From Clostridiales bacterium (GTDB lineage Bacteria; Bacillota; Clostridia; Christensenellales; UBA3700): a DNA stretch of 64,000 bases. The position numbers and the translations under genes were made by a program. The stretch covers positions 143,570 to 207,569 of the forward strand of contig JAAVHS010000015.1 of assembly GCA_014799575.1 (NCBI GenBank). Direction: 5' to 3'. Shown here one piece after another: positions 1-30,828 of the stretch. Each line of letters begins with the position of its first letter. Within the stretch, counting starts at the first letter, position 1. The notes beneath the pieces are model-generated. The model saw only the letters and a program-made list of their open reading frames with translations, did no database searches and had not been told where the DNA came from.

Positions 1-255
1 TATATCTTCACTTTCTCTTAATGAGTGAGCACCTGTTACGATACCTTTTTCAATAAGCAACTTTGTTTCGTCAAGAGTAAACGTGTTACCTTCTATTGCG
101 TTAGAGTTATGACTCGCACTGATAGAGAACTCATTATTGTAATATTTGAGTTCGCATTCTTTCAGCGGACGAACTTTTTTCATAAGTGCATAGTTCTTCT
201 CTATCTCGCCGATAATATCTATGTACTTTTGTTGTTCTTCCATATTTTTTGACAT
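1..255 (-). CDS. Fic/DOC family protein, first 85 codons (gene runs off the window start)
   Basis: Reverse-strand ATG at 253-255 with AAGGAG 8 nt upstream. Reads MSKNMEEQQKYIDIIGEIEKNYALMKKVRPL...SASHNSNAIEGNTFTLDETKLLIEKGIVTGAHSLRESEDI. About 85% identical by eye to residues 3-87 of the Fic ORF at 58700-59608. Contains the SxxxEG inhibitory-helix motif. Confidence 0.8.
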   Translation of the reverse strand, partial: MSKNMEEQQKYIDIIGEIEKNYALMKKVRPLKECELKYYNNEFSISASHNSNAIEGNTFTLDETKLLIEKGIVTGAHSLRESEDI

Positions 256-277
256 AACCGTTACTCCTTTGTTTTAT

Positions 278-306
278 ATTATACCCATTTTACAATCAAT
301 AGTCAA
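278..306 (-). promoter_or_regulatory. SigA-type promoter of the left fic gene
   Basis: Minus strand TTGACT, 17 nt, TATAAT (plus-strand agtcaa 301-306, attata 278-283), just upstream of the RBS. Confidence 0.6.
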
Positions 307-331
307 GGTTAATTCTATTGCCCGTTAATAC

Positions 332-724
332 TTATTTCGCAGGTCTAAAACCTTTTCTGATTATACTTGGTAAAGTTTCGACGTTTAATTCTCCGTCTTT
401 CACAGAAACTACTCTTACTCCTTTATTAGTAAGAAAACTTATCTCTTCGGTTATCTCGATTGCAGAATTACCAAGCACTTCAAGTTCAGTTACAATTAGC
501 ACTTCAAATTCATGGTATTTTGCTTGCAATCTAAAATTGTTGTACGTGAGAGCATCCATCGTCCCACTTTCCAAGTAAGTGCGAACTACAGACAATTCAT
601 TTGCTTTGGCATAGTTGCCCAATACTTTGCTTTGGCTTTGCAAATCCGCATAATTTCCTTTTGCCGAACGGCAATATAAGATTGCACGTTTTTCTTTCTC
701 TCTAATTGCTACTTGTCCATTCAT
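332..724 (-). CDS. Serine-recombinase (resolvase/invertase) catalytic-domain-like protein lacking a DNA-binding domain
   Basis: 130 aa with a GGAGG RBS. AILYCRSAKG..LQSQ resembles YxRVSTxxQ. EFEVLIVTELEVLGNS resembles vlvxxlDRLGR, but Asn replaces the Arg. KGVRVVSVKDGEL is also resolvase-like. No C-terminal HTH. Confidence 0.5.
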   Translation of the reverse strand: MNGQVAIREKEKRAILYCRSAKGNYADLQSQSKVLGNYAKANELSVVRTYLESGTMDALTYNNFRLQAKYHEFEVLIVTELEVLGNSAIEITEEISFLTNKGVRVVSVKDGELNVETLPSIIRKGFRPAK

Positions 725-743
725 ATCTCTGTCCTCCTATAAA

Positions 744-780
744 TACAAAAGGGTTTGATTGCTTTTGCAAATCAAACCCT
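744..780 (-). terminator. Rho-independent terminator after the 1935-aa gene
   Basis: Minus-strand RNA AGGGUUUGAUUUGC-AAAA-GCAAUCAAACCCU (13-bp stem with one bulge) followed by UUUGUAUUU. Confidence 0.6.
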
Positions 781-911
781 CTATGTTACCCCACGGATTA
801 AATGATTTTATATTTAACTGTATTGATTATAACATCTTAATCCTTGTTTGTAAAGATGTACAGAGAACATTTTTATTAAAAACAATGCTTTCACATAGCA
901 AATCATTTCCA

Positions 912-3900
912 TTAAGCTATTTCTGCTTCACACTCGTCGTCTTCTTCTATTATTTCAACGACAGGTTTCTCAGATGTATCTTCATCCATAACTATGGGCG
1001 CTTCTTGCTTACCCAAGTCAAGTTCTGCATCTATGGACGCAAGTTCTTCTCTCAAGCGTTCCACTTCTTCCGCTTGTTCAAACGGCTTGTTTACTTGTTC
1101 TTTTGCCGCTGACAAGTTATGTTGTAAATTCTCTTTTTCTTCTTGTGAGTTAATCAAGTTGTTTTCTAAATTACTCAGACTGTTTTCCAAACGAGATATT
1201 GTTCCTACGTCACTTTCAGATATTTCCACTTTATGACTTCCCGCTCCAACCAACTTCACATAATTGTGTTCGCCTTCTTTCGGTTGCGGAACTATGGCAA
1301 AGCCTTTGATAAAGCCTATCGTTTTTCCGACATACTCGCCCGATGCAACCACACGAATCAACAATGCGCCTGCGTCTTTTCTTTCTTCGTACTTATTCTT
1401 TCCGACCTGTATTAAGTCGTTTTCGTGTTCTGTGCGAAGTTGAATATCATTCTGCAAAGTCTTAATCTTTTCGTCATTGAATTGTATTTTTTCGGGCGTA
1501 TGTAATATCTGCGTTTGCAACGCATAACGGTTATCGCGGTAAACCTTTTCCAAATCATTCAATTGTCCTAATCTCATTTCAATTTCCATTTTTCTCTTAA
1601 TCTTAGGATTATCCGATGTTATGGCTTTAATCTCCGCAAATGTCAGTGTTGCGTCATCTATATCTTCCGCAACTCTTACTGATAAATCTCCACGATTGAT
1701 TTGTGATATAAACCTTTGCTTTGTCTCCAATATCTGATATGAATAAGCGTCGAAAGTTCTTTTTGTAACATAGGTATAAAGCGATACTCTCTTATTCGTA
1801 TTACCTTGTCTAACTATACGTCCTTCACGTTGCTCCAAGTCACTAGGTCTAAATGGCGTATCCAAATGGTGCAATGCTATTAACTTATTTTGGAAGTTCG
1901 TACCTGCGCCACATTTCTCTGTTGAGCCGATAAACACCCTAACTTCGCCACTTCTAACTCTATCGAAAATATCTTGTTTCTGTTGATCCGTCTTGGCTTC
2001 ATGAATGTATGCAATTTCATTCTCTGGTATTCCGCACTCAATTAGTTTGCGCTTAATATCATTATATACGTCAAAGTCTTGTTCGGGATTGTAATCGCCA
2101 TACATCTTTTTCGGCGTTGACATATCACAAAATACAATTTGCGTACTTCTTTGCTCCGCTGTATCCGACCAAATCTTATAGATATTATTCACACAACGAT
2201 TCAACTTACTATTGCTATCATCTGGTATTGTTGGGTCAAAACATCTTGGGTCTAGCGCAATCATTTTACCGTCGTGAGTTACACAAAGCATATTGTCCTG
2301 TGACGGATCAACTGCTCCGTCTGCTATCATTTCAGAACGCTTAACTATTTCATCATTCAATGCTAAGATAGTGTCCGTAGGCTCTAATTGCTCAACGTGT
2401 TTATCGACTTCCGGAACAGGCAAGTTCAACATATCTGCCGTCTTAACGTCTGCAAAACTACGATACATCTTCAAGAGTTCTGGAAGGTTTGTAAACTTAG
2501 CAACTCTTGTCTTTGTCCTATATCCTTGTCCGCTAGGCGCAAGTTCCAATGCCGTAATAGTTTCAGTATATAATGCTGCCCACGAATCAAAGAATTGCAA
2601 TCCCACCTCTTTTAATCCGTTTCTTTGCAAATAAGTCTGCAATGTGTACATTTCCACCAATGAATTGCTAATGGGCGTTCCTGTTGCAAATACTACACCT
2701 CTATCGCCACCTCTGATTTCTCCTATGTACTCACACTTTAAGTCCATATCCGAAGAACGTTGCGACATTGCCCTGCTTATACCTGATACGTTATTCATTT
2801 TCGTAAAGATAAACTTATTCTTGTATTTGTGCGCTTCGTCAACAAAGATATAATCTACGCCTAAATCTTCAAATTGCAACAAGTCGTCTTTCTTTTCCGT
2901 ATTCATCAATTTCTCAAGCTGCACTCTTTTGTTTTTCAAAGTGCGTTCAAGGTCTTTGATTCTAATACGTTCTCCTCTCCCTTCTTTTGCCTCGCGTATG
3001 CCAATCTCTATTTCGGATATTTCTCTATTCAACCTTTCCTCTTGTCGTTGACGTGATATTGGTATTTTTTCAAAACTAGACATTGCAATAACTACTGCGT
3101 CCCAATCGCTGGTTGCGACCTTTGCTACAAATCTTTTGCGACTTGTTTTTTCAAAGTCTTTCTTTGTCGCCATAAGCACATTAGCGTTTGGATAAAGCGT
3201 ACGGAATTCATTTGCCCACTGTACCACTAAGTGATTAGGTACAACTATGATAGGTTTCTTTGCCACACCACATTCTTTAAGTTTCATACAAGCGGCCGCT
3301 ATCTCAAATGTTTTTCCTGCGCCTACTGAATGATGTAGTAAAACATTGTTTCCTTGCAACATACGCGCTACTGCGTCCTTTTGATAAGGCTTCAATGTAA
3401 TTTCAGGATTCATACCCGGAAATTCCAAGTAGCTGCCGTCATATTGCGGAACAACTGTCGTATTATAAATTTCGTTATACTTATTTACAAGATATTCTCT
3501 CCTTTCTGGCTCATCAAATATCCAACGCTTGAACTCATCATATATCTTTCTTTGTCTTTCACGAACTGCAATAGTTTCTTTTTTATTGGTAACTCGCTTT
3601 GTTTTTCCGTCCTCTTCTACTTCGTCCGTTATAGTAGGCGTTTGTTGATTGAGACATTTTTCAAAAATTCGAAAGGCGTCCATTCTATTCGTACCATAAA
3701 CCGAACTTGACTTTACGCTATGTCTAAGCCAAGCAGGTCTCTCAACTTTCCACTCTCCGGTTATTGAATTAAAGCTAATATCTATGTCCTCAATATAATA
3801 TGATTGTATGTCTAATAACTCACATATAAATTGTTTATAGTATTTTGTATCAACCCAATTTACACCTATCTTAACGGATATATCATTTGCTTCGAGCGGT

Positions 3901-6719
3901 GTAGGTTGAGCCAAACGCAATGCTTCTACGTTCTTCTTAAAAGAGTCATTATGTTCGGCCATAAATTCTGCTTGTTGCAATTTCTTGCGAACATTACCAG
4001 ACAAATATTCCGACGCATCTTCCCAACCCAAATATGGATCGTTCTCGTCCATTAAACATTTCGACGGATTACGATAGACTTTGTCTCCAAGTTCTTCGAC
4101 CACTTCGTCATAGGATTTTCCTGTCAACTTCTCAATTACACGCAAGTCAACAACACCACGTTCACTCTTACATACGTTTAGCGCGTCCATTACACTGTTA
4201 CAATGCGTAACCTTTTGATATGGCTTAATTGTACGTTTTGAGAACACATCTGTTTTCTCTGCCGTCCCTGTCTTTTCGTCAACCTTTTCGATAGAAATCA
4301 ATAACGCAAAGTCAGCATCTTCTCGGAACAGACTTCTATTAAGTTTTGAATTTACTATGCCATAAGTCTTTACAAATTTATCGTAATCCCTATTAAGTTT
4401 CCTTTGCTCAGTTTCTAAAATCTCATCAGTACAGTTGTCAAGTTGCACACTCAAAACTTTACGCACTTGCTTACGCAACTCTATAAGCGCTCTCATGCGG
4501 TCTATATTTGTTTTTGCAATATCTCTAGCTACAAGAGTGTCTTGCTCTCTTTGGTATAAAGTATTGCCAATAAAAGTGTAACAGTAGTTTTTTAAGTCTT
4601 TATGCTCATTATCAATAGGCAGTTCGGCTTCGGCTACCGCTTGTCCAACTGGCACTGCTTTCTTTTCGTCATACACATTTATAGGCAAATTCTCTACCGC
4701 TTCCGCAATGGCTTGTCCAAGTTCTCTATCATCTGGCAAAAGTTCAGTTTCATCGTCGCCGCCATACATAGATTTATGTTGCACCATTGTACCAAGCAAC
4801 ATCTCAGGATGTTCGATAAAGTATTGATTGACAGGTACACCGTTATCGTCAATGCCAATATTAATCCAACTATCCTTTGCTTTCTCGACAATTTTATCGC
4901 GCTTTTGAAAAAACAATATATCTGCCGTCACTTCCGTACCCGCGCTTGTCTTAAACGCATTGTTAGGTAAACGTATTGCGCCCAACAACTTCGCTCTGTT
5001 TGCTATATACTGTCTAACGTCCGTATCTTTTTTATCTAGCGTACCCTTTGTAGTGATTGCCGCGATTATTCCACCCGGTCTAACTTTATCTAGCGATTTT
5101 GCAAAAAAGTAGTTATGTATAAAGAATCCAAATCTATCATATTTCAGATCGTGGACTTTGAAAGCTCCGAATGGAACGTTTGTAATGACACCGTCAAAAG
5201 AGTTATCCGCAAAATTTGTTTTTTCAAATCCTTGTATTTTGACTTTTGTTTCTGGATACAAAAGATTTGCTATATTACCCGTTATCTCATCTATCTCTAC
5301 ACCGTAAGTTTCTTTTGCATTGAACGTGTCTGGCAATAATCCGATAAAGTTTCCTATTCCCATTGCGGGCTCAAGAATCTTTCCTTTCTCAAATCCTATA
5401 CGCTTTAACCCCGCATACACTCCGTCTATAATAGTTTTAGGCGTATAGTGCGCTGACAATACGGACTCTCTCGCCAAACGATATTCGTTATTATCTAGCA
5501 CTGACAATAGTTCGTTGTACTCTTTATTCCACTCAGGCTTATCTGGGTCAAATGCGTAAGCAAGTCCGCCCCAACCAACGTATTTAGAAAGCACACGTTT
5601 TTCTTCGTCAGTTGCCATTCTTCCCTCTGCTCGAATTTCGTGCATTAGTTTTATTGCCTCGATGTTTTGGCGAAAACGAGTTTTCACACCCGTTGCATAG
5701 ACAAAGTTCTCATCTGTTAAACGGTAGTTTCGTATGGTTGATACACTACTTTCGTCAACACCATTTCCTCGATTGTATGCTCCGTCTCTCGAAGATTCTG
5801 TACGTTCATCAGGAAGTTCAAAGACGATTCCCCCGTCATCTGCTTGCTCAACTGCTTTCTCATGTTCATCGCTTGCTTTTGTATTGATTTCAAGTGTCTC
5901 GGAAGTTGTCCCGTCATCAACAATATTTGATACGTTCTCGGATATTCCGATTTCAGGTAATCCCGACGCAAGTTCCCATAGTGAAAGTTGTGAATGCTGT
6001 TTTGTTTCATTTTTATCTTCCTCCAACTGATAATTTTGTCTTGCTACTTTTATGCGCTCTTTTTCTTTTCTCTTTTCTTCACGGATCTGTTCTTCTTCAA
6101 CAATTGCCTCTCGCAATCCTTCGGATATATCCAACACCTCCATACAAAGCCGAAAGTTCGTATCGTCATCAAATGGCAACGGCGCAATGTTTATACCTTT
6201 ATTACCAGTGTATACTGTCATGCATTGAGTTACACCTTCGGTCAAACAAGCTAGATACTCTTCCGTATATTCTTCTGAATCTCCGTCTGCAATATGCTCT
6301 TGACAATAACGATATATCGCTGCTTGCAATTCGCTCTCATTTCCTTTCGGCATTCCGCAAAATATGTTTTGACGATTGATACTGTCTTTAAGTTTGCTCT
6401 CGCTCATTCTATGTTGTATTCCGTGATACCTCTCGCTGCCATACGTCTGAGATATGTCGAATACATACACTTTCCTATTAGGTTTATCTTCGTCATAATA
6501 AGCGATACCGTGTTCGCCACGTTTTATTCTACGGTTATCTTGCTCATGCCAATCGTCAAATGTTTTGCAGATAGTAACGCTTGGTCTCTCCGAATAAATT
6601 TGCACACTATTCCAAAATGACAAATGCGGATTATTAATTAAAAACGCATAAAATCCCGCTAGACGTGTACCACTTGAAAAAATGCTATTTATTCTTTCAC
6701 TCGCTTCTTCTATTCTCAT
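912..6719 (-). CDS. Giant ArdC-N / N6-adenine methyltransferase / SNF2-type helicase fusion (DarB-like anti-restriction protein of conjugative elements)
   Basis: 1935 aa. N-terminal ArdC-N-like module (SFWNSVQIYSERPSVT..RRIKRGEHGI..VYVFDISQTYG). MTase motif I LEPAMGIGNFIG and motif IV NVPF. Helicase motifs SVGAGKT, DEAH and QREGRIVRQG. Confidence 0.85.
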   Translation of the reverse strand: MRIEEASERINSIFSSGTRLAGFYAFLINNPHLSFWNSVQIYSERPSVTICKTFDDWHEQDNRRIKRGEHGIAYYDEDKPNRKVYVFDISQTYGSERYHGIQHRMSESKLKDSINRQNIFCGMPKGNESELQAAIYRYCQEHIADGDSEEYTEEYLACLTEGVTQCMTVYTGNKGINIAPLPFDDDTNFRLCMEVLDISEGLREAIVEEEQIREEKRKEKERIKVARQNYQLEEDKNETKQHSQLSLWELASGLPEIGISENVSNIVDDGTTSETLEINTKASDEHEKAVEQADDGGIVFELPDERTESSRDGAYNRGNGVDESSVSTIRNYRLTDENFVYATGVKTRFRQNIEAIKLMHEIRAEGRMATDEEKRVLSKYVGWGGLAYAFDPDKPEWNKEYNELLSVLDNNEYRLARESVLSAHYTPKTIIDGVYAGLKRIGFEKGKILEPAMGIGNFIGLLPDTFNAKETYGVEIDEITGNIANLLYPETKVKIQGFEKTNFADNSFDGVITNVPFGAFKVHDLKYDRFGFFIHNYFFAKSLDKVRPGGIIAAITTKGTLDKKDTDVRQYIANRAKLLGAIRLPNNAFKTSAGTEVTADILFFQKRDKIVEKAKDSWINIGIDDNGVPVNQYFIEHPEMLLGTMVQHKSMYGGDDETELLPDDRELGQAIAEAVENLPINVYDEKKAVPVGQAVAEAELPIDNEHKDLKNYCYTFIGNTLYQREQDTLVARDIAKTNIDRMRALIELRKQVRKVLSVQLDNCTDEILETEQRKLNRDYDKFVKTYGIVNSKLNRSLFREDADFALLISIEKVDEKTGTAEKTDVFSKRTIKPYQKVTHCNSVMDALNVCKSERGVVDLRVIEKLTGKSYDEVVEELGDKVYRNPSKCLMDENDPYLGWEDASEYLSGNVRKKLQQAEFMAEHNDSFKKNVEALRLAQPTPLEANDISVKIGVNWVDTKYYKQFICELLDIQSYYIEDIDISFNSITGEWKVERPAWLRHSVKSSSVYGTNRMDAFRIFEKCLNQQTPTITDEVEEDGKTKRVTNKKETIAVRERQRKIYDEFKRWIFDEPERREYLVNKYNEIYNTTVVPQYDGSYLEFPGMNPEITLKPYQKDAVARMLQGNNVLLHHSVGAGKTFEIAAACMKLKECGVAKKPIIVVPNHLVVQWANEFRTLYPNANVLMATKKDFEKTSRKRFVAKVATSDWDAVVIAMSSFEKIPISRQRQEERLNREISEIEIGIREAKEGRGERIRIKDLERTLKNKRVQLEKLMNTEKKDDLLQFEDLGVDYIFVDEAHKYKNKFIFTKMNNVSGISRAMSQRSSDMDLKCEYIGEIRGGDRGVVFATGTPISNSLVEMYTLQTYLQRNGLKEVGLQFFDSWAALYTETITALELAPSGQGYRTKTRVAKFTNLPELLKMYRSFADVKTADMLNLPVPEVDKHVEQLEPTDTILALNDEIVKRSEMIADGAVDPSQDNMLCVTHDGKMIALDPRCFDPTIPDDSNSKLNRCVNNIYKIWSDTAEQRSTQIVFCDMSTPKKMYGDYNPEQDFDVYNDIKRKLIECGIPENEIAYIHEAKTDQQKQDIFDRVRSGEVRVFIGSTEKCGAGTNFQNKLIALHHLDTPFRPSDLEQREGRIVRQGNTNKRVSLYTYVTKRTFDAYSYQILETKQRFISQINRGDLSVRVAEDIDDATLTFAEIKAITSDNPKIKRKMEIEMRLGQLNDLEKVYRDNRYALQTQILHTPEKIQFNDEKIKTLQNDIQLRTEHENDLIQVGKNKYEERKDAGALLIRVVASGEYVGKTIGFIKGFAIVPQPKEGEHNYVKLVGAGSHKVEISESDVGTISRLENSLSNLENNLINSQEEKENLQHNLSAAKEQVNKPFEQAEEVERLREELASIDAELDLGKQEAPIVMDEDTSEKPVVEIIEEDDECEAEIA

Positions 6720-6733
6720 TTTCCCCTCTATCT

Positions 6734-7252
6734 TTACTCGGCTTCCGCAATATACTTTTTCTGTTTCTCGTCATAGACAAATCCTCCGTCTCCCCATAAT
6801 TCACGATAAAGAATAATTGCATCTTGACTAAGTTCTTCGTACTCTTCACTCTCAATTTCATTACCGCCATAAAACACTTTGTGTCCCGCAATAGTAGCTG
6901 AATTATCACAATACTCATATCGCACTCTAAATTGTGGCTGCGCTTTCGATATTGCTTGCGCAATCTTTCCAACCGTATCATTCGTATCAAAGTAAATTAG
7001 ATTACCTAACACAGGTGGATTCCCATCTCCCTCAAATACGATTTGCGTATTTGTTGCCGCATTTTTAGTTCCCCATTTGTCCAAGCACTCTTGCTCATCG
7101 TGTTCGTCATTAACATCTATTATTTTCGCAAAGTCGATTATCTCATCTCCGTCACTTTCGGGATCAGCCGTTATTATACTTTCGATATATTCTTTAATCT
7201 TTGCATTGTAATCGCCTGTAATTGACAGCAAATTGCCCATTGTATTGTTCAT
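6734..7252 (-). CDS. Hypothetical protein related to the 264-aa MPNW-family protein (DUF1281/Api92-like, tentative)
   Basis: 172 aa. Shares KWGTKNAATNT, IYFDT and RVRYEYCDN with NWGTKWNAHNT, LYFDTAW and KFEYEYAEE of ORF 13556-14350. Confidence 0.5.
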   Translation of the reverse strand: MNNTMGNLLSITGDYNAKIKEYIESIITADPESDGDEIIDFAKIIDVNDEHDEQECLDKWGTKNAATNTQIVFEGDGNPPVLGNLIYFDTNDTVGKIAQAISKAQPQFRVRYEYCDNSATIAGHKVFYGGNEIESEEYEELSQDAIILYRELWGDGGFVYDEKQKKYIAEAE

Positions 7253-7260
7253 TCTTTCAC

Positions 7261-7644
7261 CTACATCTCTGGCTCACGTTCTTTCTCTGCACTTCCACCT
7301 GCGCCGCCAGTCCAATTTGATTCGAGTTCTTGTGCATACTTTTCTACTTCCTCATTAGCAACACCGAAGAAATTGTATTTTTCCCAACGGCAATGTTCAC
7401 CGTCAAAACAAAAATGTCCGTAGCAAGCATTACCTGAATTAGTAGGCTCAATGCCAAAGCCCGAAAGCACTCTAAACAATTGATATTCTGGTTTGCGATA
7501 TTTCTCTGTCAATTTTTCAAGCGGTATAATACACACCCGACCTGCGTTATCTAACGTACCATCAGTAGGCACGTCATACATACTTCTTATACAATCCTCT
7601 TTTGTAAAACTTTTTCTATCTTTCATGTTGTTTGTCTTATTCAA
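7261..7644 (-). CDS. Hypothetical protein
   Basis: 127-aa ORF packed tightly into the minus-strand operon. No motif recognised. Confidence 0.55.
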   Translation of the reverse strand: MNKTNNMKDRKSFTKEDCIRSMYDVPTDGTLDNAGRVCIIPLEKLTEKYRKPEYQLFRVLSGFGIEPTNSGNACYGHFCFDGEHCRWEKYNFFGVANEEVEKYAQELESNWTGGAGGSAEKEREPEM

Positions 7645-8017
7645 TTTCTGTTTCTCCCATAATATTTTCGTGATACTTTTCGCAATATCTGATTATTAAG
7701 TCTCCTATTTCGTCCCAACTATTAACACTTGCGTATTCTTGTTTCAAATAGTAGGTATATAGACTATCTAACACGTCCTCGCCTTCTTTATACAAGCACT
7801 TAAATGCTTTTTCATTGAGATAGAAATTACCTTCATCTGTTACTAGATAATCTTTCATTTCATTATAAAAATTTATTTTGTAATAATCATAAAAGATTTC
7901 GTCTTTCGATTTCTCCATCTCTTTTGCATAAAAAAGGTTGAATTCATTAGTTACATTATTTGCTACCCTAATTCTATAATTTATCTCTATTTCATAAGTA
8001 CTTGTATCTTCCGACAC
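7637..8017 (-). CDS. Hypothetical protein
   Basis: 126-aa ORF overlapping the next gene by 8 nt (operon packing). No motif recognised. Confidence 0.55.
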   Translation of the reverse strand: MSEDTSTYEIEINYRIRVANNVTNEFNLFYAKEMEKSKDEIFYDYYKINFYNEMKDYLVTDEGNFYLNEKAFKCLYKEGEDVLDSLYTYYLKQEYASVNSWDEIGDLIIRYCEKYHENIMGETEIE

Positions 8018-8048
8018 TAGCCTTTCCTCCTTTCTAATAATTAGCTAT

Positions 8049-8672
8049 TTACATCTCAACTTCGCTCTGCATAAACTTATCAAATGCACTCTTATCTGTT
8101 CCTTGAAGATGATTGGAAAAGTATTTCAATGCAGACTTAATGTTATGGTTATCATAAGATAAACCGCAAAGATGCCGATTATTCTTATCCATAATTGAAC
8201 ACACATAGCTGTGCCATTCGCCTTTGTGATAGATTTCCGTAATCTCTATATTCCTACCATTTTCTTTGTCTGAAAACTCTTTTAGCGTCGTGTAATCAAG
8301 GATATTCCATAAAGTTCCGTTTGTATGTCCTTGCATTAAAAAGTCATAAACGTCTTTTGGCTCATATTGTTCTTTCATAAAATCAAGATGTTTCAATGCC
8401 TGTTCTTCTGGTAAATTTGCTATGAATTCCGCTTCATCTTTCATTTCCGGCAAATAAACGTATAAAGGAATTACTCTGCCAACACAAGACAATTGCTGTT
8501 TATCAGTAGGCTCAAATACGATATATCTATCCCCACACTTTGCTACGTTTTCATCGTTAGCAATCTTCTCTGTTGCCTTGCAAATAAGAACGTCCTCGTC
8601 AAGTAATTTATAGAAACTCTCTTTCAAGCCTTGATCTTCTAATTGCTCTATGATTTTATTCTTAACTTGCAT
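8049..8672 (-). CDS. Hypothetical protein
   Basis: 207-aa ORF overlapping the C5-MTase gene stop. No motif recognised. Confidence 0.55.
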   Translation of the reverse strand: MQVKNKIIEQLEDQGLKESFYKLLDEDVLICKATEKIANDENVAKCGDRYIVFEPTDKQQLSCVGRVIPLYVYLPEMKDEAEFIANLPEEQALKHLDFMKEQYEPKDVYDFLMQGHTNGTLWNILDYTTLKEFSDKENGRNIEITEIYHKGEWHSYVCSIMDKNNRHLCGLSYDNHNIKSALKYFSNHLQGTDKSAFDKFMQSEVEM

Positions 8673-9783
8673 CTCTATCTACTTCCTCCATATATCTAAA
8701 CAGTGGCAATTCGTAAAGCAACTGTTCTGGCGTTTTCTTGCGTTCTTGATAAACCTTATCTTCCCAATCATTAATTCCATATAAGACTCCGAATATCGCC
8801 ATTAGCACTGTTACTACAATACTGTTTCCTGCTTGCGCATACAAATTCGTCTCACGGACATTATTCACTTTCTTTCCATCTACAACTTTATACCGACATT
8901 TATCATAGTCTTTGTCAGTAAATCCCATTAAACGAAAACTTTCTACCGCTGAAAAACGCCTAATTATCTCTTTGCCTTTTATTCTGTTGTCATAGATTTT
9001 TGCGCCATTGTATGAATCGTCGGAATACATTACACATTCAGCAATCCCCTCTATCGAAAGTATTACATTTGTCTGTCTGTATTTATTCCAATTCAGAAAG
9101 CCACATCGTATAATCTTGTGCGTTTGCTCATCTATATACGGTTGATACAATTCCATTTTTTCGAGATTAGGCAGTTCCATAATAGTACTCACATCATCTT
9201 GTAAAACATGTTTTATACGCATTCCTGAATCGTATCCTATTGGGAACTTATAGCCACAATCAACGTCTTTTCTAATAGCAATTAAAAACAATCGTTCCCT
9301 ATTCTGTGGGACATTGAAATACTTTGCATTGACAACTTCCGAATATATGTTGTACCCATAAGCTAATAACATAAAATAAAATCTGCGAAAATTATGTAAA
9401 TGCTTTTGCGTAAGTACGCCCGGCACATTTTCCCAAACAACTACTTTGGGTTTCGATATAGAAATGAATTGCAAATAACTCCACATAAGGCTTGATCGTG
9501 TTCCGCTCCCCTCATCTCCACCTTCGCCTTTGCCCGCTACTGAAAAACTTTGGCAAGGCGTTCCTCCAACAAGCAAATCTATATCTAGTGGAATCGGTTT
9601 TTCATTCACTTCCGTCAGGCTGCCGAAATTCTTGTTTCTATCTACGTTATGTATTGAACAGTATGACGTAATTGCCGCCTCGTCAATTTCACTGAAACAA
9701 ACGAGTTCATACGAAATACCAAGTCTTGTCAATGCTTTTTCAGGCGCACCTATTCCACTACATACCGTTGCAACTTTTAACAT
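8662..9783 (-). CDS. DNA (cytosine-5)-methyltransferase, orphan
   Basis: 373 aa. Motif I VCSGIGA, IV GGTPCQSFS, VI ENVPG, VIII QNRERLFLIA, X GNSIVV. No restriction endonuclease gene nearby. Confidence 0.9.
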   Translation of the reverse strand: MLKVATVCSGIGAPEKALTRLGISYELVCFSEIDEAAITSYCSIHNVDRNKNFGSLTEVNEKPIPLDIDLLVGGTPCQSFSVAGKGEGGDEGSGTRSSLMWSYLQFISISKPKVVVWENVPGVLTQKHLHNFRRFYFMLLAYGYNIYSEVVNAKYFNVPQNRERLFLIAIRKDVDCGYKFPIGYDSGMRIKHVLQDDVSTIMELPNLEKMELYQPYIDEQTHKIIRCGFLNWNKYRQTNVILSIEGIAECVMYSDDSYNGAKIYDNRIKGKEIIRRFSAVESFRLMGFTDKDYDKCRYKVVDGKKVNNVRETNLYAQAGNSIVVTVLMAIFGVLYGINDWEDKVYQERKKTPEQLLYELPLFRYMEEVDRDAS

Positions 9784-10217
9784 AATTCAGGCTCCCTTTT
9801 CGATAATCTTTTTTCATAGTAATCAATACCGTCTTGAACGTCTATGTGGCTTTCTTCTTCATTAAATGAATGAATAGAGACGCCCCTTTGCGGATCGTAA
9901 TTCCAAATCTCTGTATCTACTCCATCTTCGTGCCAATAACAATTTGCAGATAAGAATTTAACACCGAGTTCCTTGCAGTACGATTCCATATTTTTTTGCT
10001 TGGTCTTGTACCAACCGTAATAAATACCTTGTCCGTTTTGACAATCAAATTCAAGTACGACGTTCCCGCTCGGCAATTTAGTTTCACTTAAATTTGCCAT
10101 CACTCCGAAATTATATAATTTAATTCTATCGCCAGTATTAAAGAACAAACCCTTGAATGCTTTTACATTTTCAGATGGAAGTACCGCAATACAATCAAAC
10201 ACTGCAAAACTTGACAT
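9777..10217 (-). CDS. Hypothetical protein, distant paralogue of ORF 10217-10675
   Basis: 146 aa. The N-terminal pattern AVLPSENVKAFKGLFFN parallels VVLPTENADKFEKLFITN of the neighbouring gene. Confidence 0.5.
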   Translation of the reverse strand: MSSFAVFDCIAVLPSENVKAFKGLFFNTGDRIKLYNFGVMANLSETKLPSGNVVLEFDCQNGQGIYYGWYKTKQKNMESYCKELGVKFLSANCYWHEDGVDTEIWNYDPQRGVSIHSFNEEESHIDVQDGIDYYEKRLSKREPELC

Positions 10218-10675
10218 TACTCAGCCTCCGCTTGATTATCATCGTCCAATGTTTCATCATCGTCTAATTCGTCATAGTCAGGCTCATCATAAAGGTCATG
10301 ACATTCTTCTGCAAGTCCATTTTTTCTATCATATGACACCGATTCTTCAAAACCTATTCCCGGCTCTCTACTTTTTGCAAGTAATCTTTTCACTTTCAGT
10401 TCTTTGCAAATCTCTTCTAATGTAGGACACTTTCCATTTGATTCTTGTGGATAGCCATCTATCATACACGAATGAATACTCCAAGCTGCGTCAAAATGTA
10501 TTAGTAGCCTTGTTAGTCCATGCTTGTTTTCTTGTCTTTCCACATTGCCCAGAAAACATCTTGCAAAGTACCTATCTTCTTCTTTTGTATCATTAGTGAT
10601 AAATAGTTTTTCAAACTTATCAGCATTTTCGGTCGGCAATACAACCGACATCTCACTTTCCGCCCAATTTGGCAT
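10217..10675 (-). CDS. Hypothetical MPNW-start protein (DUF1281-like, tentative)
   Basis: 152 aa. Starts MPNWAESEMSVVLP, like MPNWVRNRLTISG of ORF 13556-14350. Acidic C-terminal tail. Confidence 0.5.
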   Translation of the reverse strand: MPNWAESEMSVVLPTENADKFEKLFITNDTKEEDRYFARCFLGNVERQENKHGLTRLLIHFDAAWSIHSCMIDGYPQESNGKCPTLEEICKELKVKRLLAKSREPGIGFEESVSYDRKNGLAEECHDLYDEPDYDELDDDETLDDDNQAEAE

Positions 10676-11004
10676 TATGCCACCTTCCTTTGTCTCGCAT
10701 TATTTTCGCGATATAGATTTATGAGTTGGCGAAGATAATCTCTTGATTGTCTAGGCAATTCGCTTACTACGAATATATCCCAAAGTTTCTCGATAATCTT
10801 TTCACCCAAAAATTCGTTATATTCTTCGTCTCGCAATACGTCATCCATTAGATATTTATATACTTCTTTATAGAACGTAACTTTGAGCGAATTTTTGTAG
10901 ACTTTATCTACTCCGCTTCGCAGTTGAAAATGACGAAAACTGTCATATTCACTCTGCACTTGCTTGAAAAATGCTCTGCGCACTTCCTCCATATTTTCTT
11001 TCAT
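10675..11004 (-). CDS. Hypothetical protein
   Basis: 109-aa ORF. Its stop abuts the next gene's start. Confidence 0.5.
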   Translation of the reverse strand: MKENMEEVRRAFFKQVQSEYDSFRHFQLRSGVDKVYKNSLKVTFYKEVYKYLMDDVLRDEEYNEFLGEKIIEKLWDIFVVSELPRQSRDYLRQLINLYRENNARQRKVA

Positions 11005-11032
11005 TTCATTCCCCTTCTTCTAAATTTTATTT

Positions 11033-11623
11033 TTACATCATAGCCGTATAAGCCGAAGAGTGCTTTTCCATTTTGTTAAACAAATTTCCAAACTCGTCAT
11101 TACACGAATCTCGCATTTCTTTCAACACCTCTGCTAATTCATCTCCATAGAATCCACCGCAAGAATCTATTTCTTCGCCTTGTTCGTCTATAATCTTAAA
11201 AGCGTAACAATCGCCTTGTAGGTATTGGTCATACATTTTCACTTCGCCAATTAACCTTTCACGAATAGTTGTCTCTAATCTTTCATCTAACTCGCAATGA
11301 TATTCTTTCTTCGCTTGTTCTTTTGTAACGTAAATATAGCCAACTTGTCCGCTATCAAATCTATCCCCAAAATCGCAAGTAGATATTGTTATTCCAGAAT
11401 GGTCATATAGATAGAGCGGCAAAATCACAAAAGCATTTTTGTATTCTTTGCTTTCTTGAAACTCTCTTGGATTTCCATAGCCGTGCTTATCTCCGAGCAT
11501 ATATCTTCTATGCCAACAAACCATTTTTCCAAGATTGTCCCAAGTGCGTGGACTTTCTGCAAACTCATCTCTATATACTTCCAATTTGTATTTACCGTCT
11601 CCTACCGTTATTAAATCTTCCAT
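11033..11623 (-). CDS. Hypothetical protein
   Basis: 196-aa ORF in the operon. No motif I can name. Confidence 0.55.
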   Translation of the reverse strand: MEDLITVGDGKYKLEVYRDEFAESPRTWDNLGKMVCWHRRYMLGDKHGYGNPREFQESKEYKNAFVILPLYLYDHSGITISTCDFGDRFDSGQVGYIYVTKEQAKKEYHCELDERLETTIRERLIGEVKMYDQYLQGDCYAFKIIDEQGEEIDSCGGFYGDELAEVLKEMRDSCNDEFGNLFNKMEKHSSAYTAMM

Positions 11624-11633
11624 AATTCTCCTC

Positions 11634-12623
11634 TTACATTTCAGCTCTACTGTGCGTTACACTCAATGCCATATTGATCGTTCTTCTCCCATAATATCCA
11701 CCGCTGTTATCCCACTTAGGTCTATACAAGCCACTTGAACGGAAAATACTATCTATCTGGGATTCGTCTTGCGTCCAATACGCTAATATACTTGCAAGTG
11801 CAAAATCTGCTGAACTTTGTGTATCGTAACTACCTTGCCAATCACCGCGGAATAATCTATCAAACTTTGTCCCTTGCCTACTACTTCTTATGCGTTCAAC
11901 AAGTTCTCTATCGGACATTGTGGCCGGTGTACGTGCAATGGGTTTGTATTCTATCGGCTTGCCTAAATAAGTTTCATTTAACTCGCCAATTATGTCGGAT
12001 AAATCTTTTACTTCTGTTGTCTCTCCAACAATGTTACCAGTCATACATACAAATCTTTTGGTATCATACATTTCAAGTCCAAAAGTATCATTCTTCTTCC
12101 TCGCATTTTCAGGCAACTTTCCATAACAAAGAAAATGTAATCCTTTCCCACTTACCGAAGTTTCACAATATGTATCAAGTCTTGACGCTAGTTCAATTGT
12201 TTTTTCTTTTACTATGTCTGGCTTCTCATCTACTTCATCAATATCCACAAATACAATCCCGCTTGTTAACACAAAGCTCAACCCATCTTGTCCGTGCGTT
12301 TGCGCATATCTTAATGCCGTATCGAAATCGCTCCATGTTGTTGGCTCATTGCTTTTGGCAAAGTCGCCCGTAATGGGCGAAATCATAATCTTACCCCAAT
12401 GACCTTCTTGCGGTTTTGCTTTGAAACACACCCATTGCCGTAATCTCTTTAATTCGTCAGGTACGTTCTCAAGCTGCTTCCATTTCCGAATGCTTGGCTT
12501 TCCCTTCGCGAAACGGCTCTTCGGCAGTCTCACACCCACCGCCAGTGGCGGTAGGTGTGGGCGCTGCTTGCGCCCTTGCTTGTTGATCCTTATAAAACGC
12601 ACGTGAAATCTTGTCCATAACAA
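11634..12623 (-). CDS. PrimPol / P4-type primase-like protein (start uncertain)
   Basis: WVCFKAKPQ..GK..SP..G..AKSNEPTTWSDFDTA, GLSFVLTSGIVFVDIDEV and SADFALASILAYWTQDESQIDSIFRSSGLYRPKW are typical of bifunctional primase-polymerase / plasmid primases. The first ~50 codons (TTG start in the ORF track) overlap the ArdC-like gene. Confidence 0.65.
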   Translation of the reverse strand: MLWTRFHVRFIRINKQGRKQRPHLPPLAVGVRLPKSRFAKGKPSIRKWKQLENVPDELKRLRQWVCFKAKPQEGHWGKIMISPITGDFAKSNEPTTWSDFDTALRYAQTHGQDGLSFVLTSGIVFVDIDEVDEKPDIVKEKTIELASRLDTYCETSVSGKGLHFLCYGKLPENARKKNDTFGLEMYDTKRFVCMTGNIVGETTEVKDLSDIIGELNETYLGKPIEYKPIARTPATMSDRELVERIRSSRQGTKFDRLFRGDWQGSYDTQSSADFALASILAYWTQDESQIDSIFRSSGLYRPKWDNSGGYYGRRTINMALSVTHSRAEM

Positions 12624-13494
12624 GTTTCGTGCTTGCGCAAATAAGGTTGAGATTATCGCGGAAAAGTCCCGTTTGTTCTTCGTTCATATTTTGAATATAA
12701 TCAAAGTTAAAACCGCTCGTATCAAGACCGAAATGCGACGCAAGAATACATGCTCTACTGTCCGCTTCAATCTTTTCTGCGTTCTCGCCGGTCATACCTT
12801 CAAAGCCTCTTCCTTTATAGTTGTCGTTTATTGCCTTGCTTGCCGCTTCTATCGCAGTCAAAACCGTGGTAGTGTTATCCATTCCCTTACATATCTTAAT
12901 GGTTTTCTTCGCTTTGTCGATTTTATAGTTTTCATTCTGCGCGAACTCGGATTCGTCCGTAAACTTATATTTCCAATGCTTTGCAGACAAAGCCGAAAAT
13001 ACACCGTCAAGGATATTTTTTTTCTCTACGTCCGACACTTTCTTGCCAATTTTATAAGGCTTGTAATCCTCGCCTTCCGTTGCAGAAATATCGAATACGT
13101 ACACAGCATGGAATCCGTCAGTTCTTTCGCGGGTATGAACAATCTCTTTACCTTCTGCGTCAAGTTTCGGTTGATTATTCTCGTCTTTCTCTATTACTTC
13201 ATACTCGACTTTGGTAGGCGCAGTAATTTCCATACTCTTTGCACCCTCTTTGATATGTCTGCCGTCTCTTACCCATTCATTCATACCTTTCACAACCGTT
13301 ATCTCTGGGTTTTGGTCAAGCATGAGAAGAATATTGTTTACAGAATACTTGCTATTCTTACCGCATTTCAAAAGCAAATCTTTGTACTTGCCATCTGCTA
13401 TAATCTTCTTGTATTGCTCTTCGATTCTGTTATTGATTGCTTCTCTTTCTTCGTCCGTGTAGTTATTAACTACTTTTACATTCTTATCTTCCAT
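12469..13494 (-). CDS. ArdC-like ssDNA-binding / anti-restriction protein (N-terminal domain only recognised)
   Basis: 341 aa. KYSVNNILLMLDQNPEITVVKGMNEWVRDGRHIKEGAKSMEI and VYVFDISATEG match the ArdC-N pattern and the N-terminus of the 1935-aa protein. Confidence 0.7.
   Translation of the reverse strand: MEDKNVKVVNNYTDEEREAINNRIEEQYKKIIADGKYKDLLLKCGKNSKYSVNNILLMLDQNPEITVVKGMNEWVRDGRHIKEGAKSMEITAPTKVEYEVIEKDENNQPKLDAEGKEIVHTRERTDGFHAVYVFDISATEGEDYKPYKIGKKVSDVEKKNILDGVFSALSAKHWKYKFTDESEFAQNENYKIDKAKKTIKICKGMDNTTTVLTAIEAASKAINDNYKGRGFEGMTGENAEKIEADSRACILASHFGLDTSGFNFDYIQNMNEEQTGLFRDNLNLICASTKLVMDKISRAFYKDQQARAQAAPTPTATGGGCETAEEPFREGKAKHSEMEAA
12531..12575. other. Two adjacent GC-rich hairpins inside the ArdC-like/primase gene overlap
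   Basis: cacacccaccgcc-agt-ggcggtaggtgtg (13-bp stem, 1 mismatch) followed directly by gggcgc-tgctt-gcgccc. A GC island in AT-rich DNA. Confidence 0.7.
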
Positions 13495-13555
13495 TTTTTA
13501 TTCTCCTAATAATTTAATATATTTGTTTGTTGTTATTTGATATATAGGAACACAC

Positions 13556-14350
13556 CTATTCCATTTCATCTTCATAGACGTAATCGTATGTACCTGTTTT
13601 CTCATTGAACTGAAATTCATCTTCGCCACCCCAAAGTTCAAAATACTTTTCATAAGCCTCTTTGCTATACGGATCATATTCAGTAGCACTTGTAATTTTT
13701 CCGTTCTCATATTCACATTGTCCCGCAAAATATCCCGCGCATTCTTCTGCATACTCATATTCAAACTTGCACTTAGGGTGCAATTCTGAAAGTTTCCGAA
13801 TTAAATTCATCACTCTACTCCATGCAGTATCAAAGTACAACTTTGCAGTATTTAAGTCTGGAACTTCCGTATTATGCGCGTTCCATTTAGTGCCCCAATT
13901 ATTGCAGTGCCACGTATACCAATCGACTGCGCCATATTTCTTAAAGTTGTCTACAGCTTGTTTTCCCAATGCTAAAATGCTGTTCTCATCTTTATTCTTA
14001 CTTTGCATATTTTTGAGTTTTTCAGCGATTTCTTCTTGCGACATTGCAAAACACGGTTTAGCCTTTAACATGGATTGCGGTATCTTATTACACAAATCTA
14101 TGTACTCTTCAACGGGTATCTTCTCTGTACCGTAATAATTAATAAGCGGATTAATTGATGTGAGATAAATATCAATTGCTTCATACGTTTCTCCTCCTGC
14201 GTCAATATCCAACTCTTCTGGCATTGGAATTATTTTATTGAAATCAAAGTCATATTCGCCATCTATGTCATTCTTTACAAGATATGACTTCATTATTTCT
14301 ACCGCATTATCTCCACTTATCGTTAAACGATTTCTAACCCAATTAGGCAT
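13556..14350 (-). CDS. MPNW-start protein (DUF1281/Api92-like ferredoxin-fold family, tentative)
   Basis: 264 aa. MPNWVRNRLTISG, IIPMPEEL, NWGTKWNA, FDTAW. Confidence 0.55.
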   Translation of the reverse strand: MPNWVRNRLTISGDNAVEIMKSYLVKNDIDGEYDFDFNKIIPMPEELDIDAGGETYEAIDIYLTSINPLINYYGTEKIPVEEYIDLCNKIPQSMLKAKPCFAMSQEEIAEKLKNMQSKNKDENSILALGKQAVDNFKKYGAVDWYTWHCNNWGTKWNAHNTEVPDLNTAKLYFDTAWSRVMNLIRKLSELHPKCKFEYEYAEECAGYFAGQCEYENGKITSATEYDPYSKEAYEKYFELWGGEDEFQFNEKTGTYDYVYEDEME

Positions 14351-14377
14351 TATCTTATTCCTCCTTTTCTTTTTTTC

Positions 14378-14944
14378 TTACGCACAAATATTTACGTCAT
14401 TTCCCCAACAATCCCACCCACCTGCACTTTGTCTTGCAAACAATTCAATTCTTGGCACATCTCCAAACAACTCCACAATGCGGTCTCTTACTTCGTCAGG
14501 CTTCTTGCTATGCTCTTGAATTGGAGATATTATGCAACTTGATACACTATTGCTTATAGGCTTCATCTTTCCTTTAATACCCATAAGGCAAATTTCACAG
14601 TTACTTTTTGCATAATATCCTATACCGAAGAAAGGCTTGCTGTTTTTCTTATTTGTCTTTACCCAACTAAAACCTAACGTCGTATATCGAAATCCCCAAC
14701 TCTCAAACAATTTTATTTGCTCGTTTAAATATGGAAATGTTACCCACAAGAACAATACACAGTTGTCTGCCGCTATCTTTGGAATGGGCAAGTTTGCTAT
14801 ATCTTGCATTGTCATTAAATCATAATGTCCGTATGCGCCTTTTCCAAATTTAGTTTTGGGATTATTGCGCTTGTTGTATTTCCACGGCGGATCAGCGTAA
14901 ATGATATTGTATCTTTTGTCAGTTTCATATATGTTTGTAAACAT
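14378..14944 (-). CDS. MT-A70 family N6-adenine DNA methyltransferase, orphan
   Basis: 188 aa. IIYADPPWKY (DPPW catalytic motif), followed by FLWVT and WGF blocks typical of MT-A70. Confidence 0.85.
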   Translation of the reverse strand: MFTNIYETDKRYNIIYADPPWKYNKRNNPKTKFGKGAYGHYDLMTMQDIANLPIPKIAADNCVLFLWVTFPYLNEQIKLFESWGFRYTTLGFSWVKTNKKNSKPFFGIGYYAKSNCEICLMGIKGKMKPISNSVSSCIISPIQEHSKKPDEVRDRIVELFGDVPRIELFARQSAGGWDCWGNDVNICA

Positions 14945-14953
14945 TGTGCCTCT

Positions 14954-15202
14954 CTACATTTCTACCGTATTTTTAATTTCTTTGCAGTTATCAATTTCTT
15001 CCAAGCAATCAAGAAAATCGCATAAGAATTGAGCGCACCAAACTAATTCATTTTCCTCAATTTCGCCATTCTCAAATTTTTCAAGCACATCACCCAAATA
15101 ATTCTTGTGAACATTGTAGACCTCTTTGAAATCGTCAAGTGACCACCCTATGCTTTCCATTTTGTCAAATGTCGCTTGCAGTATCTTCTTTTCATTTTTC
15201 AT
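14954..15202 (-). CDS. Hypothetical protein
   Basis: 82-aa acidic ORF between the VirB4 and MT-A70 genes. Confidence 0.45.
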   Translation of the reverse strand: MKNEKKILQATFDKMESIGWSLDDFKEVYNVHKNYLGDVLEKFENGEIEENELVWCAQFLCDFLDCLEEIDNCKEIKNTVEM

Positions 15203-15217
15203 AATCTATCTGCCCCA

Positions 15218-19520: not shown

Positions 19521-19539
19521 CTAACAGTCTCCTTTTGCT

Positions 19540-19830
19540 TTATGCTATCTGCGCTTGTACCCAACCTTGCAAAATCGGCAAAGCAACCTTTAGTGCGACT
19601 ATCAAAACAAAGATTGCAACAAAACCTATGATTGCGCCAATCAAATCTTTCTTTGCTTTCTCTCTACTGTTCTGCTCATCACTCTTTGCAAGTTTAATAC
19701 CGAGTACAATACAATAGATTGCACCTGCCGCTCCGACAAGTGCTATTGCCGGCCACAAGATTGCATTCAACACTTCAAGTATTGGTGCAATTACTGGTGA
19801 GAAATCCACCGCTGCCAAAAAATACTTCAT
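19540..19830 (-). CDS. Small two-TM pilin-like (VirB2/TrbC-like) conjugation protein
   Basis: 96 aa. Two hydrophobic helices separated by the charged loop KLAKSDEQNSREKAKKD. Located first in the MPF gene set. Confidence 0.55.
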   Translation of the reverse strand: MKYFLAAVDFSPVIAPILEVLNAILWPAIALVGAAGAIYCIVLGIKLAKSDEQNSREKAKKDLIGAIIGFVAIFVLIVALKVALPILQGWVQAQIA

Positions 19831-19875
19831 ACTTTTTCCTCCAATTTTTTAATCTTTTTTAAGTTCTTTCAGAAC

Positions 19876-19948
19876 GAAGGCGGGTATCCCGCTTCCGTAG
19901 TTTTTGGATTAGGCTCAAATGACTTTGACGGCAAATTGAGTCTAATCC
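19876..19948. other. Two intergenic hairpins upstream of the pilin-like gene
   Basis: gaaggcggg-tat-cccgcttc (19876-19895). ggattaggctcaa-17 nt-ttgagtctaatcc (19906-19948, 13-bp stem, one mismatch). Confidence 0.55.
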
Positions 19949-19993
19949 TTATCCTGCTTGCCTTTTGGGGTATTTTTAGCCCTAATTCTTCTA

Positions 19994-28360: not shown

Positions 28361-28363
28361 AGA

Positions 28364-28897: not shown

Positions 28898-28913
28898 ATA
28901 TATTCTCCTTTAT

Positions 28914-29312
28914 TTAAAATATTATTTTTTTTAGTGATTCAAAAAAGTTGCGAATTACGCTTTGTAACTGCTCTTGCTTGTATCCGTGTACCGACATAAG
29001 GTAACGAATTGATTTATCATCACGGAAAAGGTCGTAAAGTATCTTTCCGTGTTCTACTGGTACTTTTACAATCTGGTTATGAATTAGATCTTCATATCCT
29101 TGCTCTTCCAAGACATCTTCAAAAACATAGATAAACTCTGAGTCCATTACTACAAGCTCGTTCTCAATTCTTCCGCGATATGCTTTTCGCATTTTAGCAA
29201 TGTGCTTTTGAAAATTGATTCTTCCGCGAGTTTGTAAAATAAGTTTACCTAACTTTTCATTGACGGGAACATACATTTCCATATCCCCTATTACTGCATT
29301 TATGTATTCCAT
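28914..29312 (-). CDS. Hypothetical protein
   Basis: 132-aa ORF with a GGAGG RBS. First gene of the mob operon. Confidence 0.5.
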   Translation of the reverse strand: MEYINAVIGDMEMYVPVNEKLGKLILQTRGRINFQKHIAKMRKAYRGRIENELVVMDSEFIYVFEDVLEEQGYEDLIHNQIVKVPVEHGKILYDLFRDDKSIRYLMSVHGYKQEQLQSVIRNFFESLKKIIF

Positions 29313-30817: not shown

Positions 30818-30828
30818 TTTTAATCCTC

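Follow-up and report, generated by a model that had tools for sequence, protein, structure and literature searches.

A 64,000-nt stretch of DNA (the window) from an uncultured gut member of the Clostridia (Clostridiales bacterium, GCA_014799575.1, contig JAAVHS010000015.1, forward-strand positions 143,570 to 207,569) contains two related fic genes about 59 kb apart, fic_L, which is cut by the left edge of the window, and fic_R near the right end. All genes in the repeat and attachment (att) regions of the window lie on the minus strand. Here, we describe the two integrative elements to which these genes are assigned, E_L with fic_L and E_R with fic_R, and the gene of the GGGtGRT family (PF14057) at whose 3' end they stand. 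The flanks were taken from contigs of other assemblies. Contig L001 (14.9 kb) was recovered by an exact-protein look-up using the 130-amino acid open reading frame (ORF) at 332-724; it is 100% identical to window positions 1-9307 and extends 5.6 kb further to the left. Contig L002 is 100% identical to window positions 50117-64000 and adds 6.9 kb on the right.

BLAST aligned window positions 1-322 collinearly with 59349-59667 on the minus strand, at an identity of 80.2% across 323 nt (E=1.2e-63; MAFFT agrees), which bears out the collinear repeat of about 75-80% identity that an initial annotation had placed at 1-345 and 59349-59690. The first 85 codons of fic agree in 205 of 255 nt (80.4%), and 48 of 60 nt (80%) agree from the -35 box up to the ATG. 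The next 31 nt past the promoter share 57% identity, compared with 55% in an unrelated control stretch, and the repeat was therefore taken to end at about 314-322 in the left copy and 59659-59667 in the right one. Of the originally described unit of about 87 codons, ribosome-binding site, promoter and about 40 nt beyond, promoter and ribosome-binding site thus belong to the repeat and the last 40 nt do not; a short island at the boundary, AAATAAGTA, is left over from the 3' end of the resolvase-like ORF at 332-724. The repeat had also been described as one of a fic 5' end, an appearance that arises because the window stops inside the left copy: comparison with L001 revealed 82.4% identity over 898 nt, evenly spread along the whole gene. 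Both copies carry TTGACT-17-TATAAT, each matching the consensus in 11 of 12 positions, with an AGGAG ribosome-binding site downstream. Six independent loci keep the promoter block AATTAACCTTGACTATT...TATAAT, whose conservation equals that of the coding sequence and greatly exceeds the approximately 35% identity at synonymous sites. A strong sigma-70-type promoter, fic and a terminator-like hairpin or similar downstream sequence thus probably constitute a self-contained expression cassette.

The two Fic proteins are 86% identical, with a proportion of synonymous differences (pS) of 0.645, a dS of about 1.5 and a dN/dS of 0.05 as computed by NG86. A fresh target-site or segmental duplication requires near-identical copies, and the nucleotide identity found is 80-82%; as synonymous sites are near saturation, the duplication is not a fresh one, as had already been argued from the divergence. 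fic_L and fic_R are old orthologues that have long been separate and evolve under purifying selection.

fic_R adjoins a tyrosine integrase gene, int_R, as noted initially and confirmed by its Pfam domains (Table 1), and the second integrase that had been predicted just outside the left end of the window is present in L001. There, the rest of fic_L is followed by xis, encoding a 70-amino acid protein of the HTH_17/excisionase family, by int_L, encoding a 433-amino acid tyrosine integrase and beginning about 0.9 kb beyond window position 1, by an AT-rich region with GTGTACA and GTGCACA repeats, by a terminator hairpin and by the 3' end of the convergent GGGtGRT gene. Int_L and Int_R share 61% amino acid identity and keep the catalytic motifs RLGE, HSLRHTH, LGHS and VY; int_L, xis and int_R are intact ORFs. 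In a tblastn search against phage genomes the best match of Int_L had at most 33% identity, so that it has no close named relative there. Directly upstream of fic_L lies the resolvase-like ORF, which also adjoins fic in the loci L087 (67% identity) and L102 (130 amino acids, Pfam Resolvase); a relic of its 3' end is seen upstream of the fic promoter in E_R and in locus L086.

Three directly oriented junctions, A, B and C, each comprise the terminator, the last ~21 codons of GGGtGRT and a 13-bp core, GGGTTGTTACCCA. When the sequences that follow int_L and int_R are aligned with L002 860-1100, the similarity among the three junctions stops sharply right after GGGTTGTTACCCA. The second copy of the fragment at 57046-57129, which had been expected beyond a left integrase, is indeed found there, and a third is present in L002 (Table 1). 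Between these three direct cores, the internal ones lie between the int-proximal end of one element and the distal end of the next, the arrangement of a tandem array. Copies A and B encode the same peptide, GNNPMVGASVSCAVAVEEALK followed by a stop codon, with synonymous differences, which indicates that each element brings a replacement gene end. An incoming element supplies synonymous last 21 codons and a terminator, so that the target gene stays intact. The int-distal arms of E_L and E_R (L002 971-1221) are 90% identical over 251 nt, and four of the five window matches to the arm-type motif GTGKACGAR flank the core. The 64-kb window has CCATNGGGTTG only twice, in the core and, in inverted form, some 210 nt into the distal arm. 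All 80 loci sampled keep the target codons GNNPMVG; the window contains no tRNA gene, so the site is not a tRNA att site. The distal arm furthermore lies between the core and a relic, in inverted orientation, of the target codons (CAACCCTATGGTTGGCGAC), at window positions 57069-57079 and 56850-56860.

From core B to core A, E_L measures 59,725 nt (59.7 kb). With an integrase and direct att repeats at both ends and with a relaxase, a coupling protein and a VirB4-type ATPase, it qualifies as an integrative and conjugative element (ICE). A membrane protein adjacent to VirB4 (VirB4/membrane region 15218-19520) matches MMCAP2_0566 with 163.1 bits and Mbov_0396 with 126.1 bits, and further genes encode ArdC, two methylases, a 1935-amino acid SNF2 protein and a primase-polymerase-like protein. 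E_L resembles Firmicutes/Mollicutes-type ICEs: its coupling protein belongs to the CD1115 family of Clostridioides difficile (conjugative transposons CD1110/CD1115), and its VirB4 and membrane protein match the Mbov_0397/Mbov_0396 families of Mycoplasma ICEs. In contrast, the latter use a DDE transposase where E_L has a tyrosine integrase, and E_L differs from both groups in its integration module and its cargo, which comprises a reverse transcriptase fused to a bAvd-like domain (RT-bAvd), the giant SNF2 protein and methylases.

E_R, from core C to core B, measures 12.8 kb, which is within the 5-18 kb size range of integrative and mobilizable elements (IMEs), and has its own intact int_R. It carries a complete Gabija system, in which the full-length GajA (ATPase and TOPRIM; 671 amino acids, E=4e-186) and GajB (UvrD-like helicase; 678 amino acids, E=6e-247) are encoded by adjacent, overlapping genes that continue to L002 5917 (PADLOC). 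The rest of E_R comprises a hexapeptide-repeat protein, a GTPase, a 120-nt relic of an E_L-type reverse transcriptase gene, an int-proximal arm relic, an inverted partial copy of the distal arm (L002 5473-5631) followed by a direct copy of the adjoining segment, and a frameshifted IS200-type Y1 transposase pseudogene (L002 4833-5210; Pfam Y1_Tnp E=4e-35 after manual frame correction). Neither Pfam nor PADLOC revealed a relaxase among its ORFs, and no conjugation genes, xis or recognisable origin of transfer (oriT) were found in it, an oriT being beyond the reach of these tools. Its similarity to E_L is limited to the att arms, fic, int and the 120-nt fragment. E_R is best read as two accreted units with a scrambled shared junction: the one would be a decayed remnant with the hexapeptide-repeat protein, the GTPase, the reverse transcriptase fragment and the IS200 pseudogene, the other the island with Gabija, fic_R and int_R. 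As a speculation, the junction might have formed by an integrase-mediated inversion between core and pseudo-core and a subsequent deletion at the microhomology GTACACATTT. An arm-like segment left of copy C suggests another remnant further out.

The same site is occupied differently in other genomes. In L102, from the host species (GGGtGRT 99% identical), an E_L-type module with 97% identity is found, and L103, also from the host species (GGGtGRT 99% identical), has neither int nor fic at the site: it matches L002 858-1038 joined to the gene body, without E_R and E_L, and differs from L002 beyond. The presence of a 97% identical E_L-type ICE in another strain and its absence from a third genome of the same species indicate recent mobility of E_L at least. 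In L086, from another species (GGGtGRT protein 79% identical), a 3.6-kb insert (L086 5593-9195) lies between two copies of the gene-end fragment with core (CCATAGGGTTGTTGCCCA) and consists of nothing but a distal arm, xis, int (with 69% identity to int_L), the fic promoter-fic cassette and GTGGACGAG arm repeats; its neighbours are housekeeping genes, those for rhamnose catabolism and an epimerase at one end and the GGGtGRT operon, McsB and ClpC at the opposite end. This minimal xis-int-fic element argues that the fic cassette is part of the recombination module of the element family. In a survey of the GGGtGRT neighbourhoods of 80 species representatives, fic stands beside the gene only in the closest one (L004) and is absent in the other 79. 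Integrase homologues or relics are present at the same gene end in L033, L036 and L079, and repeated gene-end copies in L033 and L051. The gene end of L004 is 100% identical to copy B over 69 nt, which suggests a decayed E_R-like element there.

Taken together, it is very probable that the two fic starts belong to two related elements, the 59.7-kb ICE E_L and the 12.8-kb island E_R, which stand in tandem at one gene end. They appear to be orthologous copies of one cassette, carried in the recombination module by a family of site-specific integrative elements that would insert at the GNNPMVG codons near the 3' end of GGGtGRT, and successive integrations at the one 13-bp core would have produced the array. 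On the coding strand, this would begin with an older remnant arm, terminator, 3'-end copy C and core C, followed by E_R, terminator, copy B and core B, by E_L ending in the resolvase-like ORF, fic_L, xis and int_L, and by terminator, copy A, core A and the GGGtGRT gene body. At the level of sequence, head-to-tail accretion with gene-end replacement at a common core is evident. The initial annotation had proposed two related elements in tandem, each organised att-int-fic-cargo; the tandem holds, and the order on the coding strand is cargo, fic, (xis), int, att. The right element turned out to be a composite non-conjugative island and not a second ICE. E_L would be excised by Int_L and Xis via cores B and A. 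Recombination of core C with core A could free the entire array, in which case E_R could move along with the ICE; for excision of E_R by itself, Int_R would be required, probably together with an excisionase acting in trans. The att cores, not the fic copies, are likely the plausible route for loss or joint excision.

Several points weigh against this interpretation. E_R lacks xis, a relaxase and a recognisable oriT and may therefore be immobile, and the stretch that separates core C from core B is scrambled and contains part of an arm in inverted orientation. L103 keeps arm-like remnants beside the gene and thus provides no pristine attB. In L004 and L088, fic stands directly beside the gene without int or arm repeats, which is read as decay, other histories being possible. 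The flanks come from other assemblies (Logan SRR11425444, ENA ERZ27267574), which are identical over 9.3 and 13.9 kb, and not from the window's own record. Exact-protein look-ups of int_R, fic_R, the 272-amino acid protein and the first E_L gene returned the same two samples only and no independent context for E_R, nor an attP or attB junction; the look-up with the 690-amino acid GajB ORF gave no match, its called start differing. The role proposed for Fic, finally, is deduced only from its motifs and from profile matches.

In streptococci, ICEs are known to stand in tandem with IMEs, CIMEs or decayed islands at the 3' ends of conserved genes, and their integrases are 21-69% identical (PMC5357655); precedents cited there are ICESt1/ICESt3 of Streptococcus thermophilus and the rpsI, rpmG and rplL tandems (Pavlovic 2004, Bellanger 2011, cited in PMC5357655). 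The array described here is similar in having at least three direct att sites, 3'-end insertion with replacement of the gene end, an ICE beside a smaller non-conjugative element and remnants, and related but diverged integrases (61% identity). It differs in the host, uncultured gut Clostridia, in the target, a GGGtGRT gene, and in the fic cassette common to the recombination modules of both elements. No literature report of the GGGtGRT family as att site was found in the 13 papers that name the family, and a search for it as integration target gave proteomics studies only. New are thus the target gene, the host clade and the conserved fic cassette in the recombination module, while the architecture is already known.

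Among the alternatives, it is conceivable, if rather unlikely, that the array is a fossil, in which site-specific arrivals have become a fixed 72-kb island or a composite ICE that moves only as a unit. The missing xis, relaxase and conjugation genes of E_R, its IS200 pseudogene, reverse transcriptase fragment and inverted arm would fit this, as would the int-less remnants at the site in L004, L088, L036 and L103 and the difference between the int_R-proximal repeats (GTGGACG) and the distal-arm repeats of E_R (GTGTACGAG). However, int_L, xis and int_R are intact with their catalytic motifs kept, the three cores are identical, and the distribution of the E_L-type ICE among strains of the host species speaks for movement. 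Extremely improbable is a segmental duplication of the chromosome, or fic_L as an ordinary chromosomal paralogue, with a 59-kb interval that has no element ends. L004 and L088, close relatives of the host, do have fic beside GGGtGRT without an integrase; yet fic_L is followed by xis, int and att, the pair is near saturation at synonymous sites, fic in L086 lies inside an insert bounded by direct repeats, and the gene end of L004 is identical to the E_R-associated copy B. That fic is native to the GGGtGRT neighbourhood was rejected in view of this bounded insert, of L103 without fic and of the 79 species without fic at the site.

The initial annotation had further suggested that the repeats could mediate deletion or exchange of the 59-kb segment; the corresponding alternative makes them chiefly substrates of RecA-dependent homologous recombination. 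As direct repeats of about 900 nt they could serve this purpose, and the module order varies (fic-xis-int, fic-int and xis-int-fic), so that the cassette has been rearranged during evolution. Nevertheless, we regard this as very unlikely, because the copies are 18% different and their longest identical run is 23 nt; moreover, no hybrid fic was seen among the loci examined, and recombination at the identical att cores, for which integrases are present, would be far more efficient. Just as little credence is given to the possibility that the tandem junction is a metagenome assembly chimera made from the att and fic repeats. It is true that the att repeats are precisely where contigs from Logan SRR11425444 are interrupted (the end of L003 is at window position 57100, the start of L099 at 57033), but the ENA contig k119_95342 and the window both continue without a break from E_R across core B to E_L and are 100% identical over 13.9 kb, and repeats of just 80-90% identity are too diverged for assembly collapse. 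Tandem integration of two related elements therefore remains the preferred explanation.

Class II Fic proteins, which are auto-inhibited from their N-terminus, are defined by a (S/T)xxxE(G/N) motif N-terminal to the Fic core. SNAIEG at residues 51-56, N-terminal to the Fic domain (residues 106-215), fits this motif, and HPFVDGNGRTGR, present in fic_L, fic_R and the L004 copy, is the Fic motif HxFx(D/E)GNGRxxR (also in the form HPFxDGNGRxxR). The nearest solved relatives are BtFic (3CUC), FICD and CdFic (4X2C), i.e., class II auto-inhibited AMP-transferases, with which the inhibitory motif is shared. The canonical Fic motif and PADLOC matches of fic_R to PDC-S04 (E=5.5e-36) and SoFic (E=8.5e-35) also liken it to single-gene Fic defence candidates. 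However, the SoFic profile is covered at positions 21-248 of 361 only (PADLOC) and the NCBIfam SoFic score is 39 bits at a cutoff of 550, which indicates a Fic protein without the full-length architecture and C-terminal domain of SoFic. SoFic toxicity is reported to require this C-terminal domain (PMC12249575). Our best guess for Fic is an auto-inhibited AMP-transferase whose role for the element would be one of defence or addiction. A further reading, which we consider doubtful, is that xis-int-fic forms a minimal selfish unit with Fic as payload and with a distal arm that is flipped by the integrase as a switch. Fic may then be an addiction or abortive-infection toxin that retains the unit, and the 60-kb ICE and the Gabija island may have been built on this seed. 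A flip of the distal arm, seen once as the inverted arm in L002, might disable excision and fuse neighbours.

For uncultured gut Clostridia, the end of a highly conserved GGGtGRT gene is thus described as an integration hotspot, and exact boundaries are given for a 60-kb ICE and a Gabija-carrying island. Accretion physically links defence genes to conjugative elements and would allow joint movement, and with the conserved fic cassette in the integration module it becomes possible to test whether Fic stabilises the element or acts against phages. Current concepts are unchanged; the value lies mainly in annotation and in mobile-element studies in gut anaerobes.

Table 1. Features of the tandem array and of related loci; positions are those of the window unless a contig or locus is named.
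Feature	Location	Strand	Remarks
fic_L, first 85 codons	1..255	-	gene runs on left of the window; full 281 codons (276-281 amino acids) in L001; contains SNAIEGN inhibitory motif
P_fic_L	256..322	-	-35 TTGACT 306-301; -10 TATAAT 283-278; ribosome-binding site AAGGAG 269-264; upstream repeat end
Resolvase-like ORF, 130 amino acids	332..724	-	serine-recombinase catalytic domain only, no DNA-binding domain; Pfam Resolvase E=3e-7
E_L body	1..57061	-	runs 2.66 kb further left of the window to core A
VirB4-like ATPase	15218-17836		Mbov_0397 574.7 bits, just under cutoff 590; Pfam TraG P-loop 60 bits
Type IV secretion system (T4SS) pilin	19540-19830		E_L
VirD4 coupling protein	24885-27146		T4SS-DNA_transf 172 bits; NCBIfam CD1115 299.9 bits (cutoff 250)
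MobL/MobP-like relaxase	27143-28360		Pfam MobL 84 bits (cutoff 28.5)
E_L int-distal att arm (X)	56847..57061	-	two GTGTACGAG arm-type repeats 56901-56920; inverted core-like half-site CCATAGGGTTG 56850-56860
Junction B, att core	57062..57074	-	GGGTTGTTACCCA; E_R/E_L border, then E_L distal arm
Displaced GGGtGRT 3' end (copy B)	57075..57129	-	with core encodes GNNPMVGASVSCAVAVEEALK and stop
Terminator hairpin and int_R-proximal arm	57176..57292	-	hairpin 57176-57201; three GTGGACG repeats within 57240-57290
int_R, 431-433 amino acids	57316..58611	-	tyrosine integrase of E_R; Pfam Phage_integrase, SAM_3, Arm-DNA-bind_4
Terminator-like hairpin	58633..58659	-	between fic_R and int_R
fic_R, 300 amino acids	58700..59602	-	Pfam Fic E=8e-19; Fic motif HPFVDGNGRTGR
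P_fic_R	59603..59667	-	-35 59651-59646; -10 59628-59623
E_R cargo in the window	59821..64000	-	57-amino acid ORF 59821-59994; 272-amino acid protein 60117-60935; GajB 60992-63028; C-terminal part of GajA 63004-64000
Junction A	core at L001 11971		then GGGtGRT gene body; gene end L001 11916-11983
Junction C	core at L002 1026		then arm 90% identical over 251 nt; third fragment copy L002 971-1038
Cassette order	E_L, L102		resolvase-like ORF, fic, xis, int
Cassette order	E_R		fic, int
Cassette order	L086		xis, int, fic
Cassette order	L004, L088		fic directly beside gene, no int
Second variable spot	L102 5244-9060		GmrSD, RNase III and radical SAM genes
Second variable spot	L103 4739-9092		nSTAND NTPase and metallophosphatase
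Second variable spot	L104 499-2555		ThsB-like TIR
ATAATGTAAAnTAAAGTTGAC motif sites	L002 1336-1389, 5701-5754; L001 14695-14736; window 42889-42918; L103 2934-2974, 7809-7862		

The RT-bAvd protein of E_L (547 amino acids) is encoded at window positions 52823-54466, and downstream of it lie repeated GC-rich segments that bear hairpins (52207-52287/52609-52689 and 50145-50207/52669-52731), one of which lies at the 3' end of a 362-amino acid ORF (50181-51269). A canonical diversity-generating retroelement was considered but could not be demonstrated: the repeats do not have the adenine-specific substitution pattern, and a pair of template and variable repeats was not established. Four very large ORFs of E_L have essentially no Pfam matches (19994-24955, 1653 amino acids; 30829-35790, 1653; 37459-41064, 1201; 44468-49978, 1836); the two of 1653 amino acids proved to be unrelated upon comparison. 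A terminator-like sequence of about 60 nt occurs twice with 87% identity, after the SNF2 gene (window 755-816) and after fic_L (L001 9889-9948).

On the other side of the GGGtGRT operon, upstream of the gene pair encoding a 230-amino acid protein and GGGtGRT, a second variable spot is present in which defence-type genes vary by strain. A promoter- or operator-like motif of 40-55 nt with tandem ATAATGTAAAnTAAAGTTGAC units was furthermore observed at several island starts and upstream of a xerC-like gene.

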